A stretch of 63,832 nt of DNA, filler included. It is 6 parts of 6 records of this genome, joined end to end, with 100 filler letters (N's around TTAATTAATTAA, not from the genome) between each part and the next. Parts side by side here need not be neighbours in the genome. Positions count along the whole stretch, not along the records: positions 57,247 to 63,832 come from SRR31156797_22324; 5 more parts are not named here. One strand, written 5' to 3'. Each line of letters opens with the position of its first letter. The stretch's first letter is position 1. The notes beneath the pieces were generated by a model that saw only the letters and a list, made by a program, of their open reading frames with translations, searched no databases and was not told the DNA's origin. Made by a program: the position numbers and the translations under genes. Positions 57,247 to 63,807 of this stretch are shown piece by piece.

Positions 57247-57486
57247 GTAGTAATTACCTTCCAGGTAATGGCAGTCGCCGGGGTGTCAGCCGGACACCCA
57301 TACACCGTCAGAGCCGTGACGAAAGGCCGCCAGTACGAATTTAGGGGTAACCCGGGCCGAGCAGGGCACCCGGATGATCCTGAAATTGGGCGGGTATTGA
57401 AATCGACTTACACCCGCCAAATCTGCTGCACCGTAACTACACCAGTTACAGAGAAAGGTTGTGATTTTTGGTTCCCAATCGCTCAT
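57247..57486 (-). CDS. mvhD: MvhD/FlxD [2Fe-2S] subunit, selenocysteine form, 3'-truncated
   Basis: [15 protein letters not shown]...DGVWVSG-UGA(57286-57288)[16 protein letters not shown] aligns with the Cys of GCHPGDCHY in the contig-4 MvhD. Confidence 0.92.
57253..57269 (-). promoter_or_regulatory. Bacterial SECIS-like hairpin (mvhD)
   Basis: ATTACC-TGGAA-GGTAAT starting 16 nt after the UGA. Confidence 0.65.
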
Positions 57487-57550
57487 TCCCTCATCTCCTA
57501 TTTTATTTGATTAGGCGCAAGGTGTTAAGGGGAAAGGTGAAACATTTAAC

Positions 57551-57578
57551 ACTTGAAACCTAAAACTTGAAACTTGAA
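57551..57578. repeat. Heptamer tandem repeat
   Basis: ACTTGAA ACCTAAA ACTTGAA ACTTGAA in the hdrA-mvhD intergenic region. Confidence 0.6.
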
Positions 57579-57651
57579 AAACCCCTATATCACATCATGA
57601 GTCCAAATTTTAGAAAAAAATGCAATTCCCGTGAGATTCTCACCCGAATCC

Positions 57652-60600: not shown

Positions 60601-60759
60601 CAGTCTGTGTATGGGCTCAAACTCGATATTTTCCAGCTCATCGAGGTTTCGAAACAGGTAGGGTCCAACCTGACCCCATCGTTTCGCTAACCCTAGAACA
60701 CCCTCATAACCGTTCCGGAGGGCATTTTCCGCTTCCTGTCTGATCCACTCTTTCATCAC
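57652..60759 (-). CDS. hdrA: Fusion: FdhB/FlxC-like N-terminal half + ferredoxin + C-terminal part of a double-module HdrA
   Basis: N-terminal RIAAVLRGCDVRAI...IIGITC; then TCPIALPNEFD..RKAIYIPYPQAVP, FERLLSASGP, QCVGSR..YCSSVCC; second module IGVFVCRCGINI, IGGGISG, YCSRVCC, C-terminal ferredoxins; first FAD GGGxxG missing. Confidence 0.88.
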   Translation of the reverse strand: MMKEWIRQEAENALRNGYEGVLGLAKRWGQVGPYLFRNLDELENIEFEPIHRLSKTLTLMLKKRPDTRIAAVLRGCDVRAIRQLEEKGEINIDQLHIIGITCSHEQAEICNCEKPIYSTQNCTGCWKCMDACKEQAINRINTCPIALPNEFDMKLSNRKAIYIPYPQAVPLKATRDLQNCLKITGAMECKGCETVCQADAIIHEDSEVTEEIRVGSVIIAPGFAPFDPSGLDVYGFGRLPNVVTSMQFERLLSASGPFGGHLVRLSDHREPKKIAWVQCVGSRENNKCDRAYCSSVCCMYAIKEAMIAKEHSGGDLDCTVFYMDMRTYGKDFERFYNDAREKHGIRFVRSRIHTVDTVPDDDTLSFRYTMEDGNPITETFDMVVLSVGLETPPELIDLSRDLGIQLTEGNFCETSSFAPVTTSRDGIFVSGAFQNPKDIPQSVIDASAAACAAGEALSGARHTLTKTKEIIPETNITGQRPSIGVFVCRCGINIAGVVDIDQVRDYAASLPYVDYVTDNLYTCSQDTQDTMSQVIKEQNLNRIVVAACTPKTHEPLFQETLINATLNKYLFEMVNIRNQDSWVHKNDPEQATEKAKDLVRMAVAKVALMDPLQESTLEIDQGALVIGGGISGLTSAKTLSAQGYPVCLVERSSALGGQALSLFKTWKGEDVQKQLVDLVEAVQSDPNIDVCLDTEVADVEGFVGNFTTTLTINNGKEKTLEHGVAVISTGASEYQPHEYLHGEDPRVLTHLELDRRFLKGDPALKETKTAVFIQCVGSREPERPYCSRVCCTHTMESALHLKSLNPKMDVMVLYRDIRTYGEREYLYRKARMAGVKFFRYSLDEKPQVSLAGDTLQIEIMDRILARPIRIKTDLLCLSTAIVPYRDEKLAQFFKVPMNEDGFFVEAHAKLGPSKFATDGVFLCGMAHYPKPIDESVAQSLAAASCAITLLARKRFNVSGTVAAVNPLYCSSCGVCIGLCPFSAPSFVEEGPFEGKAQVNPILCKGCGLCVASCRSGALNLKGFGEGQIMAMIDQI

Positions 60760-60800
60760 AGTCTCCTCGGCGTGAAACGACCATTTGGATCTGTTTCTTC

Positions 60801-62843
60801 CTAATTGTCAATACCTATATTAACGGCACAAACCTTAAAATCCGGAATCTTCGCCTGGGCTTCGATCCGGCTGTCCGTCAGTTTATTAACGGTGCATTCC
60901 GCAAAATGCATGGGAATAAATATGGTACCGGGTTGTACTTCACCGGTTTTTGCAGCCTTGATGGCGATTTCCCCCCTTCGTGAACGCACCATGACCATCT
61001 GGCCTTCATGGATACCCAACCGGTCGGCATCTTCGGGATGGATGTTCATCAAGGCTTCCGGCGCTTCCCGGTTCAGAATATCGATGCGCCGGGTCATGCT
61101 ACCCCCGTGAAAGTGAAAGGGGATCCTGCCGGTACTGAGGATATAGGGGTAATCCTGATCCGGGAGTTCCGCTGGGGGCACGTAGTCGATGGCGGAAAAA
61201 AGGCCCCGGCCCCTTGCAAAACCGGTTTCATAGAGAAACGGGGTTCCCGGATGCTCTTTGTTGGGACACGGCCACGCAAGGACTTCACCATTATCGAGGC
61301 GGTCATAGGTGATGCCCCCGTAGGAAGGGGTTACCGATGCGATTTCTTCCATGATCTCTTTGGGGGAGGCAAAATCAAACCCCGGTGCGTTCATGACGCC
61401 TGCCAGTTCTGATATGATCCGCCAGTCGGGTTTTGATTCCCCCATGGGCGAAATGGCTTCCCGGACCCGCTGAACACGGCGGTCCGTATTGGTGAAAGTA
61501 CCTTCTTTTTCGGCGAATGAGCAGGCGGGCAGTACCACATGGGCCAGTTGTGCGGTCTCCGTCATGAAGATATCCTGAACCACCAGGAGGTCGAGGGATT
61601 CCAGTGCCTGCTGAACATGCCGGGTGTCGGGGTCGGAAATCATGGGGTTTTCGCCCATGACGATCATCCCCTTGAGGGTTTTGTTCCGGGCGGCGGCCAT
61701 CATTTCCACCAGGGTCAGCCCCGGTGTTTGAGAGAGCGGCATTCCCCATCGGTCTTCAAATCGGGCATGCACATCCATGTTTGCCACCGGTTGATATCCG
61801 GGCATGACATTGGGCAGGGCCCCCATATCACAGGCGCCCTGAACGTTGTTCTGACCCCTTAAGGGGTTTACTCCGGTAAAGGGGCGGCCCACATTTCCCG
61901 TGGCCATGGCAAGGTTCGCAACGGCTTTTACATTGTCCGTGCCCGTGGTGTGCTGGGTAATGCCCATGGCGTAAAAGATCATGGCCTTTTCAGCTTTGCC
62001 GAAAGTCAGCGCCGTCTGTTTTAAGATGTCTTGGCTTACACCCGTGATGTCACTGACCTTTTCAAGCGTATACCCTCTCACCTTCTCTTTTAAGGCCTCA
62101 AACCCTTCGGTTTTGTCTCGGATGAATTCATGATCGATCAGGTTTTCCCAGATCAGGATATGCAGTATCCCGTTTAAAAAGGCCACGTTGGTTCCGGGTT
62201 TTAAGCTCACAAAGATGTCGGCGTATTCGGTGAGCGGAATTCTCCGCGTGTCCACCACAATGAGTTTGGCACCCTTGTTTTTGGCCGCCATTATTCTGCC
62301 TGAGATGATGGGGTGCTGACTGGTGGTGTTGCTTCCGATGACGAGCATGCAGTCGGTATGTTCAATCTCGGAAATGGAGTTTGTCATGGCGCCCGCACCG
62401 AAGGCCGTGGCAAGACCTGCCACCGTGGAGGAGTGTCAGAGGCGTGCGCAATGATCGATGTTGTTGGTTCCCAGCAACCCCCTTGTAAATTTCATGAAGA
62501 GATAGTTTTCTTCATTGGTGCATTTGGCACTGGACAAAACACCCAATGCATCCGGCCCATGGACGTCTTTGATGCCGGTCAACCCTTCCGCGATCCTCCG
62601 GTAGGCTTCATCCCAGCTGACTTCCACGAATTGGCCGTTTTTCCTGATCAGGGGTTTTTCCAGGCGGTCCGGTTTTTGAACAAATTCATGGGCGTTTCTC
62701 CCCAGGACACACAGTTTCCCCTGGCTGACGGCGTGACTTCTGCAAGGGACCACATCCACAATCTCTTCGTTCTGGACCTGGAGATAGAAATTGCACCCGG
62801 TGCCGCAGAACGGGCAGGTGGTCAAGGTCATGTCAGAGTGCAT
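60801..62843 (-). CDS. fdhA: Cytoplasmic Mo/W-bisPGD formate dehydrogenase alpha subunit, selenoprotein (about 680 aa)
   Basis: Track ORFs 62436-62894 and 60801-62423 are one frame: TCPFCGTGC...DHCARL-UGA(62436-62438)-HSSTVAGL; LRGQNNVQGACDMG; RBS AAGGAGG; no Tat signal. Confidence 0.95.
62407..62423 (-). promoter_or_regulatory. SECIS hairpin (fdhA)
   Basis: GTGGCA-GGTCT-TGCCAC 12 nt after the UGA, resembling the E. coli fdhF SECIS. Confidence 0.85.
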
Positions 62844-63807
62844 TTTCATCCTCCTTGATGAGCGTTTGGCTGTTAACCGCGTGGATAATGGCATCCCGCG
62901 CGTCTTTTTTTAGGTCCGGAACCAGATCGAAAACTTCCTCGGGAGAAAAATGGCGCACCATGTCCTGAAGCATTTTGAGAGGGATCCCCGCAGGGCAGGT
63001 CTGTTCACAATCGCCGCAGAGCACGCAGGTATCCCAGACCTGATAAGCCCGGATTAAATGAAAGAGCGGATAAGTGGGCGGCACGTGGCCTTTGGGTACC
63101 CATTTTTCCAATTCAAGGGTTTCGTGGGTTCCGGGAATTTGAACCGGGCATATGTCAACGCAGCCGTAGCATTTGATGCATTTCCGAAAGTGGTTTTGCC
63201 AGAAGGTTTTCCGCTCTTCCGGTCCCATTTTTAACACTTCCTGAAGAAGTGTCGGCGCAATAATGGCCGCTTTCTTTTCAACCGCCTTAAATCTCTCTCT
63301 GACAACCGTCGTCATGGCGTGTTTTATGGGGTTTTCTTCCATGCATGCGTCCGCGCAGTCGCCGCACTGGATGCATTTGGATTGGTCTATTTCGATTCTG
63401 TCGGCCCACAGTTGTCCGTCAATTTCGGTGGCGGGATGGGCTTCATCAATGAGCTGTGTGGCGCAATCGCCACAACCGGTGCATTTATCCACGTCAACGT
63501 ACCGGGGTTTTTTCTGGATTTGAACTTTCAGATCTCCCTGTTTCCCTTCGATACTCTTGACGGTGGTGCAGGGATGGATCTGGATATTGATATGCCGGCC
63601 GACCTCGACCAGTTTGGGAGATATAATTCACATGGCACAATCATTGGTGGGAAATGTTTTATCCAGTTGCGCCATGGCCCCGCCAATGGAAGGGCTTTTT
63701 TCCACCAGGTGAACGAAGTAGCCGGAATCTGCCAGATCCAGAGCGGATTGCATACCGGCAATGCCTCCACCCACGACCAATACGGATCCCCTCAATTCAT
63801 CAGACAT
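62833..63807 (-). CDS. Fusion selenoprotein (324 aa): HdrA N-terminal FAD-binding fragment + ferredoxin + FdhB/FlxC-like C-terminal half
   Basis: RBS AAGGAG, ATG 63807: [29 protein letters not shown]...[14 protein letters not shown](63628-63630)-IISPKLVEV...[15 protein letters not shown]; in frame with track ORF 62833-63492 ([39 protein letters not shown]). Confidence 0.9.
63595..63612 (-). promoter_or_regulatory. SECIS-like hairpin (hdrA N-fragment)
   Basis: CTGGTCG-AGGT-CGGCCGG stem-loop (with G-U pairs) starting 15 nt after the UGA. Confidence 0.7.

Follow-up and report, generated by a model that had tools for sequence, protein, structure and literature searches.

The window analysed here is a 63,832-nucleotide stretch of joined contigs, the last part of which (positions 57247–63832) is, on inspection of the sequence, a separate 6.6-kb contig truncated at both ends. 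The minus strand of this contig carries, in order, four genes termed g1, fdhA, g3 and a truncated mvhD (open reading frame (ORF) calls and translation), whose products relate to the heterodisulfide reductase (Hdr) flavoprotein HdrA and to formate dehydrogenase (Fdh). A sequence-only reading of this DNA had proposed that an fdhA–fdhB unit was opened within fdhB and sits inside a split hdrA, producing two chimeric genes. Its gene coordinates and four-gene content agree with the ORF calls, and the layout itself, with fdhA nested between the permuted halves of an FdhB-like protein (FdhB') inside a split hdrA, holds on the comparisons below.

g1 (62833–63807, minus strand; 324 residues plus stop) has the composition hdrA(N-piece)::ferredoxin motif::fdhB'(C-half), as judged by ORF calling, phmmer searches of the PDB and Foldseek. 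GGAG lies 7 nt ahead of its ATG, and an in-frame stop is found five codons upstream. Residues 1–116 (63460–63807, minus strand) form the start of a thioredoxin-reductase-like flavin adenine dinucleotide (FAD) domain with a GGGIAG motif, belonging to the first of two HdrA modules (5odc_A alignment, motifs of alignment A1), and g1 8–156 corresponds to HdrA 146–304 (phmmer against the PDB). In the 5odc_A alignment query residue 9 pairs with residue 146, and the selenocysteine (Sec) encoded by UGA codon 60 (63628–63630), Sec60, falls on HdrA Cys197. The description of this piece as a normal Sec-HdrA N-terminus is correct for Sec60 and incorrect for the beginning of the protein, which starts at the FAD motif and lacks the N-terminal domain. 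Residues 117–170 (63298–63459, minus strand) are a ferredoxin-like segment with a CxxCxxCxxxC motif (C145–C155) that aligns to the second motif of the HdrA inserted ferredoxin domain (HMMER), and its cysteines are invariant in 20/20 rows of alignment A1; the cysteines near the junction are C109/C112/C115 and C145/C148/C151/C155. The remainder, residues 171–324 (62836–63297, minus strand), contains two CxxCxxCxxxCP motifs and is the C-half of FdhB' (phmmer, the natural protein P0257, tblastn). Here g1 198–297 matches FdhB 281–377, the two-cluster C-terminal domain of F420-dependent FdhB, with E-values of 5.6e-13 (7bkb_E), 5.5e-13 and 1.5e-8 for three FdhBs (phmmer). Foldseek searches with an AlphaFold2 (AF2) model of g1 return both parents, HdrA at E 5.6e-10 and FdhB (7bkb_E) at 2.6e-4.

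g3 (57652–60759, minus strand) is an ORF of 1035 residues; starting from ATG 60756, which has GAGGAG 6 nt upstream, it encodes 1034 residues, the length of most homologues. Residues 1–117 (60409–60759, minus strand) are the N-half of FdhB', with invariant C76, C102, C110 and C112 (phmmer, a sub-threshold Pfam match, P0257, tblastn and alignment A3). Direct similarity to FdhB is weak in this half (g3 57–105 to FdhB 84–132, E 0.002–0.005 in three FdhBs; phmmer against the PDB), and tblastn matches it to the FdhB' of loci L012 and L042. Residues 118–470 (59350–60408, minus strand; phmmer against the PDB) comprise the inserted ferredoxin domain and the remaining part of the module 1 FAD domain, g3 114–403 corresponding to HdrA 234–516. 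The junction-side cysteines are C122, C125, C128, C132 and C143-P, followed by C180, C189, C192 and C196; together with the four cysteines of the FdhB' N-half they are invariant in 21/21 g3-type proteins, down to 60% identity (alignment A3). Residues 471–1035 (57655–59349, minus strand) form a complete second HdrA module, identified by phmmer against the PDB (g3 475–708 to HdrA 6–240, g3 854–1033 to HdrA 475–650) and by alignment of module 1 with module 2. The HdrA N-terminal domain is found solely in g3 475–620.

Relatives encode an intact FdhB' of 268–278 residues, the N-terminal part of which matches the start of g3 and the C-terminal part the end of g1. In P0257, a natural protein of 278 residues, residues 11–124 match g3 4–116 (E 1.5e-14) and residues ~145–242 match g1 189–286 (E 9e-29), in agreement with the earlier claims that gene 1 ends in an FdhB/FlxC-like C-half and that gene 3 begins with the matching N-half. 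P0257 is 33% identical across its length to the 276-residue FdhB' of L042, which likewise matches the g3 start and the g1 end (42.6% identity to the g1 C-half; tblastn). The latter gene sits between mvhD and a Sec-fdhA, and upstream of mvhD lies an unsplit two-module hdrA of 1017 residues. The break in FdhB' is a single point near P0257 residues 125–130, with no loss and no overlap, and the end of the N-part and the start of the C-part lie within ~35 residues of each other. Because intact P0257 spans both halves and relatives have the unsplit order hdrA-mvhD-fdhB'-fdhA, the permuted, nested reading holds, and the proposed opening of the unit within fdhB is supported.

A profile built from four FdhB' and 14 FlxC proteins of the loci matches methanogen FdhB in two collinear stretches: an N stretch (profile 12–184, FdhB 29–219; independent E-values 1.8e-13, 4.1e-15 and 2.2e-9) and a C stretch (profile 196–302, FdhB 276–379; 4.8e-31, 1.2e-27 and 1.6e-28). 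For whole window proteins, neither FrhB_FdhB_N nor FrhB_FdhB_C gives a Pfam match at E<0.1, and NCBIfam names no FdhB domain; g3 1–113 reaches 17.6 bits with FrhB_FdhB_C (cut-off 23.3), at positions 2–40 of 150. Domain mapping of the chimeras therefore finds nothing above the Pfam threshold, while the profile and the bridging P0257 give the N/C-complementary match that had been anticipated. In phmmer searches of the PDB, nothing in g1 or g3 matches the FAD/F420 core of FdhB (residues ~130–270), and FdhB' is a small FlxC paralogue without this core. The AF2 model of the L042 FdhB' is confident in residues 1–100 only (predicted local distance difference test score of 60 overall) and for that reason is silent on the packing of the N- and C-terminal domains. 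Its N-terminal domain retrieves 7bkb_E (8.7e-9) and 8rvu_E (1e-6) with Foldseek, and aligns to FrhB chains with a root-mean-square deviation of 2.3–3.5 over ~105 columns. Prediction of a complex between g1 160–324 and g3 1–118, without supplied alignments, gave a median of 0.32 (mark 0.34) and is informative neither way.

The HdrA of this locus is a Flx-type pseudo-dimer of two modules, the first of which is split inside the inserted ferredoxin domain. Module 1, comprising g1 and g3 114–470, carries the Sec at the Cys197 position and is the sole module with an inserted ferredoxin domain; it has neither an N-terminal domain nor a C-terminal ferredoxin domain. In module 2 the N-terminal and C-terminal domains are present, and Cys197 and an inserted ferredoxin domain are missing. 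The GxGxxG FAD domain of module 1 is complete only as g1 plus g3 (g1 8–116 and g3 114–403, equivalent to HdrA 146–516), and that of module 2 lies within g3. The C-terminal 2x[4Fe-4S] domain is present in module 2 only. The N-terminal [4Fe-4S] domain feature is divided in a complementary manner, with Sec60 in g1 and the N-terminal domain in g3, and we infer that Sec60 ligates the cluster of this domain. E356 and K409 are flavin-site residues of HdrA (PMC12054007). Both equivalents are kept in module 1 and are D and E in module 2, in pairwise alignments read by eye.

The junction between the HdrA pieces is duplicated rather than clean. g1 keeps its own cysteine set, a partial second set of the inserted ferredoxin domain, and g3 has its own full set, so that the nested unit has a ferredoxin motif at either end. 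The statement that gene 3 resumes HdrA where gene 1 stopped is accurate in that HdrA continues, and has to be amended for the duplicated motif and for the complete second module that follows. In the NCBIfam scan g3 reaches 762.7 bits with the equivalog NF040770, whose cut-off is 1100, and the HdrA score of g1 is 164 bits; on these scores the window protein is classed as HdrA-like and outside the methanogen HdrA equivalogs.

Between the two chimeric genes, fdhA (60801–62843, minus strand; longest ORF from 62894) encodes the alpha subunit of a Sec-containing formate dehydrogenase (TIGR01591, Pfam). Its start with a supporting ribosome-binding site, ATG 62843, has AGGAGG 6 nt upstream and creates an 11-nt overlap with g1. 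The protein scores 872.2 bits against TIGR01591 (cut-off 666.25), has the Pfam domains Molybdopterin, Molydop_binding and Molybdop_Fe4S4, and carries Sec at UGA codon 153 (62436–62438; numbered from the longest ORF), followed by His. FdhA is predicted to be catalytically equipped. At the opposite end of this locus, the first 80 codons of mvhD/flxD (57247–57486, minus strand; Pfam FlpD, E 3.3e-36) include a Sec UGA at codon 67 (57286–57288) and are cut by the contig end. All four genes are preceded by a Shine–Dalgarno sequence (GGAG for g1 and mvhD), so the clean ribosome-binding sites and the gene 1/fdhA overlap were correctly identified. The claim of intact Sec insertion sequence (SECIS) elements fares less well. 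A SECIS-like element is present at the fdhA UGA (62383–62441, minus strand) and scores, below threshold, 40.1 bits with Rfam SECIS_3 (gathering score 63; E 1.3e-6). On RNA folding, the hairpin at the g1 UGA folds no better than shuffles; the same is true of that after the mvhD UGA, where the element region is cut by the contig end.

The layout recurs in other genomes. The order g1-fdhA-g3-mvhD-flxC-flxB-flxA is present in 4/4 extended loci (L096–L099), partial loci L001 and L095 agree with the same order and fusion points, and one locus of this order lies on a contig of 740,885 bases. Of the Flx genes the window has flxD/mvhD only; in the relatives, the flxC product is FdhB-like, the flxB product Fer4_22 and AsrA-like, and the flxA product FAD/NAD-binding. 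The g3 of L097 is 100% identical to P0187 (source name Thermodesulforhabdus norvegica). After flxA in this locus (L100 4791–6008) are an HdrC-like two-cluster ORF of 227 residues and a CCG-domain ORF of 169 residues, perhaps parts of a single HdrD-like gene that a stop or Sec codon interrupts. Conservation in other genomes supports a maintained operon rather than debris, as the sequence-only reading had suggested.

A search with g1 scored 8000 candidates, 6858 of them at E <= 1e-5, and the best 120 are listed (46–90% identity). The FdhB'-C motif is found in 114 of these 120 matches, and 96 have it together with the FAD and Cys197-position motifs. The sources include Thermodesulfobacteriota, Chloroflexota and Dehalococcoidia, and the source labels read 'ferredoxin', '4Fe-4S dicluster domain-containing protein' or 'HdrA-like polyferredoxin'. 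A full-length g1 match occurs in at least 5 of 401 genomes sampled from one phylum, a lower bound because only five candidates per genome were scored. No protein of at least 568 residues containing g1 117–324 was found at E 1e-10, which is weak evidence against any fused form. A tree of the C-terminal domain resolves g1, FdhB' and FlxC as three groups, with support of 100/99 for the g1 group, and does not name the donor. Eighteen of the best 120 g1 relatives (among P0007–P0026, P0117 and P0120) are 417–469 residues long; this size class is the nearest kin of the window in the tree, and its three aligned members (P0014, P0020 and P0021) have an HdrA N-terminal domain ahead of the FAD piece. Among the best 120 g3 matches, 52 begin with the FdhB' N-half, named examples being strain NaphS2 (88% identity), Eth-SRB2 and Syntrophobacteraceae, and 42 are proteins of ~1080 residues with a 2Fe-2S N-terminus.

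The wider family was surveyed by sorting 80 loci by arrangement. Nine loci (L006, L013, L014, L017, L020, L030, L038, L049 and L058) have mvhD-flxCBA behind a two-module hdrA that is not split. Four further loci, termed class D (L012, L042, L059 and L074), have an unsplit hdrA-mvhD-fdhB'-fdhA without flx genes. Many of the 80 loci carry, at the corresponding position in module 1, 1.4–4.5 kb of other DNA. One of them, L009 (8001–14139), encodes a stand-alone HdrA N-piece of 131 residues with Sec, then NuoE-like and NuoF-like proteins, then a 1080-residue protein that starts with a NuoG-N-like 2Fe-2S/4Fe-4S region (Fer2_4/Fer4) and continues as HdrA; mvhD and flxC come after. As GltD/NfnB (in-frame), NuoEF and FdhA modules occupy the same domain, HdrA's inserted ferredoxin domain looks like a recurrent socket for foreign modules. 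Three Desulfobacteraceae-type genomes (G002, G004 and G005) each have 17–25 matches to the HdrA FAD piece, in frames of about 1000, 1080, 1130, 1250 and 1480–1500 residues. Proteins with this piece appear to make up a very large paralogue family of several size classes.

The contig is best interpreted as the front part of a soluble, multi-subunit flavin/Fe-S enzyme of the Flx-Hdr type, in which FdhA would replace ferredoxin on the low-potential arm and NAD(P)H would drive CO2 reduction, or the reverse; this reading is given a probability of roughly 0.5. g1 and g3 would have to assemble, since neither has the whole module 1 FAD domain and since Sec60 should complete the cluster of the g3 N-terminal domain, a role that Cys197 plays in the HdrA dimers of methanogens. 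Assembly would restore the FAD domain, and the FdhB' halves would probably rejoin to form an Fe-S wire from the FdhA cluster to the inserted ferredoxin domain, where FdhA would stand in ferredoxin's place. NAD(P)H would enter via FlxABC and MvhD, leading to reduction of CO2 to formate, or formate would be oxidized in the reverse direction, with coupling to a high-potential partner, which would be HdrBC/DsrC where those genes are present. FdhA is read as the replacement of ferredoxin because the inserted domain is the low-potential arm of HdrA, linked in methanogens by polyferredoxins to the CO2-reducing Fwd/Fmd (PMC13518236, PMC9012536), and because MvhD, which brings in donor electrons, is followed by the NAD(P)H module flxCBA (Pfam). 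It is tempting to go further and to see a bacterial equivalent of the Hdr-Fwd super-assembly of methanogens, achieved by gene nesting: a two-chain FdhB-derived wire would link the HdrA low-potential exit covalently to Sec-FdhA as CO2 reductase, and NAD(P)H arriving via Flx could power formate production from CO2, or formate oxidation could be confurcated, with no free ferredoxin involved. The inserted ferredoxin domain would then be a socket that has received whole input/output modules repeatedly in evolution, twice with splitting of the host gene (NuoEF, FdhA) and once in-frame (GltD). This extension is tentative, and is held at somewhat less than even odds.

Several observations weigh against FdhA as the low-potential acceptor. 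The contig ends inside mvhD, leaving the window without HdrBC genes, and flxCBA are known from relatives only; which flavin feeds which arm of the pseudo-dimer is not readable from sequence. The high-potential partner is not fixed, because HdrC-/HdrB-like genes follow flxA in L100 and nothing comparable is present downstream of flxA in L101. The wire itself has changed: g1 residues 210–300 (62908–63180) lack a CPxCxCxxC motif that normally comes after the first cluster motif and is invariant in 18/18 aligned FdhB'/FlxC proteins, and 32/120 of the best g1 relatives retain it. One cluster of the ancestral FdhB' wire may thus have been lost in the window g1, and the absence of the motif here and in most of these relatives suggests that a cluster became dispensable after the protein was split. 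In class D relatives and in methanogens, moreover, the Fdh module is joined through MvhD as the electron donor, which makes formate a plausible donor here. On that opposite logic, formate would feed the bifurcating flavin, NAD(P)+ would be the high-potential acceptor via Flx, and free ferredoxin, for which the extra ferredoxin-like segment of g1 could serve as a dock, would be the low-potential acceptor, giving an NAD(P)+/ferredoxin reductase driven by formate. Methanogen Hdr does take formate as input through FdhAB (PMC13518236, PMC12054007), and class D combines the same gene kinds without flx genes; however, the Fdh module of the window is fused into the inserted ferredoxin domain and not placed beside MvhD, a port already followed by flxCBA in all four full loci, and we regard this scheme as unlikely, at perhaps half the weight of the one preferred. 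The lost CPxCxCxxC motif, and the position of the FdhB' halves beside different ferredoxin-like segments, would also suit an arrangement in which only g1 wires and the g3 N-half is a structural leftover or linker, no FdhB-like subunit being rebuilt. This is improbable: the four cysteines and much of the g3 N-half are invariant in all 21 g3-type proteins to 60% identity, and FdhB' breaks at one point where nothing is lost and nothing overlaps.

The history of the locus can be told in another way. hdrA may have been split at this site already, as in the NuoEF-bearing relatives, with Fdh genes coming in by exchange and fusing at either side afterwards, rather than a permuted unit being inserted in a single event. 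L009, where another module splits hdrA at the same site and leaves its stand-alone N-piece, speaks for such a course, as do the ferredoxin motif duplicated across the junction and the three-group tree that names no donor. The clean break in FdhB', and halves that flank fdhA in the order expected from a tandem fdhB'-fdhA duplicate, speak against it; it is judged less likely than not. An artefact, whether an assembly error or a contaminating contig with decaying pseudogenes, might be suspected from a 6.6-kb contig that is cut at both ends and unlike the rest of the window in GC content. Such an origin is negligibly probable. A single contig of 6364 bases from the likely source run spans both junctions; in addition, g1/fdhA is bridged by a contig from a different marine metagenome, and fdhA/g3 by one from an RNA library (each ~90% identical to the window), in line with the expectation that sequence would cross the fusion points; X2 record 29, which extends just 28–29 letters into g3, was excluded from this count. 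The reading frames are unbroken except for UGA at known Sec positions, and six loci of other assemblies (L001, L095–L099) repeat both the gene order and the fusion points. Conserved order elsewhere, intact frames and bridging contigs together rule out misassembly and gene decay.

In the 165-nt spacer between g3 and mvhD (57487–57651), GTTTCAAG is present three times, along with a short GTGAG/CTCAC hairpin and a T-run; the spacer could serve the operon as an attenuator or as a site of processing. The contig is preceded by a non-biological contig-to-contig linker (57147–57246, no strand), a run of N with TTAATTAATTAA of the N/stop-codon type. Window positions 1–57146 code for a Dcu C4-dicarboxylate transporter, a chemotaxis receptor and EAL phosphodiesterases. 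GC content is 41–45% in this remaining part of the window versus 52–57% across the Hdr/Fdh contig, and the two look like DNA of different organisms. Given the differences in GC and gene content, the Hdr/Fdh contig may stem from contamination or from a partner in co-culture within the assembly. Its host is a sulfate-reducer-type bacterium.

Electron bifurcation by HdrA is central to energy-limited anaerobes, and the wiring of its three arms decides which chemistry can be driven. FdhA fused to the ferredoxin-reducing arm would, if true, connect NAD(P)H, a high-potential acceptor and CO2/formate directly and without ferredoxin. This would matter for formate transfer in syntrophy, for the fixation of CO2 by sulfate reducers and Chloroflexota, and for the design of enzymes that reduce CO2. 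As a gene arrangement, the locus is a rare, clean case of a gene circularly permuted around its neighbor and nested in another, host and guest both being split and the result conserved across lineages. Because pieces of the nested locus carry gene and database labels such as 'ferredoxin' and 'FAD-dependent oxidoreductase', the enzyme is invisible in metabolic reconstructions. Cultured-source g3 proteins of this layout (source names Thermodesulforhabdus norvegica and strain NaphS2) make the reading testable.

Many of the elements have precedents. Fused HdrA, GltD inserts, intact hdrA-mvhD-fdhB-fdhA clusters and Flx-Hdr are already known, as is the division of an Hdr protein over two or more genes in collinear order (PMC2702500); the nested layout is widespread but unnamed. 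In agreement with the earlier view of the architecture as undescribed, the literature searched, including the available parts of PMC10553843, PMC7382037 and 10.1101/2024.09.26.615249, contains no fdhA between permuted fdhB halves in a split hdrA, although gene-cluster figures elsewhere might show it. Clusters of hdrA-mvhD-fdhB-fdhA have been reported from Desulfobacterium autotrophicum HRM2 and Desulfobacula toluolica (PMC2702500, PMC5736913). They have the same four gene kinds, from Desulfobacterota and Chloroflexota, and correspond to the class D loci; in contrast to the window, all their genes are intact and collinear.

Fused 'type II' HdrA likewise has two modules in one chain with a complementary N-terminal domain and Cys197, and in 'type III' HdrA/HdrL a foreign GltD/NfnB module interrupts the inserted ferredoxin domain (PMC12054007, PMC9012536, PMC2702500). 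However, the module order here is the reverse of that in fused HdrA of anaerobic methanotrophic archaea (PMC9012536, PMC12054007), archaeal type II is reported to keep both E356 and K409 (PMC12054007) whereas module 2 here lacks the equivalents, and the interruption, unlike that of type III, is not in-frame: the gene is broken and a whole extra gene included. The FlxABCD-HdrABC of Desulfovibrio vulgaris, an NADH dehydrogenase/heterodisulfide reductase (PMC5947623), also couples an HdrA-type flavoprotein with MvhD/FlxD. In relatives of the window flxC, flxB and flxA lie downstream, and one has HdrC-like and CCG-domain genes. The differences are a two-module HdrA with a split first module and nested Sec-FdhA and permuted FdhB-like halves, an inconstant hdrBC, and the order hdrA...flxDCBA. 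The Hdr/Flox cluster Sfum_1969-1977 of Syntrophobacter fumaroxidans is described as having 'two hdrA genes', in the order small hdrA, intervening genes, large hdrA, floxDCBA and hdrD (PMC5947623). By description alone it is probably the NuoEF-bearing split form seen in L009; its nested module differs from that of the window, and in the available text it is not described as a split gene.

The methanogen FdhAB-MvhD-HdrABC(-Fmd/Fwd) assemblies (7BKB, 9T1S; PMC13518236) share with the locus an HdrA with Sec/Cys197, MvhD, an FdhB-related Fe-S protein and a pterin-dependent formate dehydrogenase. There, FdhA, FdhB and HdrA are separate, intact subunits, HdrA is a homodimer, and FdhAB docks via MvhD as a donor (PMC13518236). 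Methanogen FdhB keeps its F420/FAD core, in contrast to the FdhB-like protein of the window, which lacks the core and is in two pieces, with the Fdh module in the inserted ferredoxin domain. In methanogens this domain is wired to a CO2-reducing pterin enzyme (PMC13518236), and FdhA is proposed as its equivalent here.

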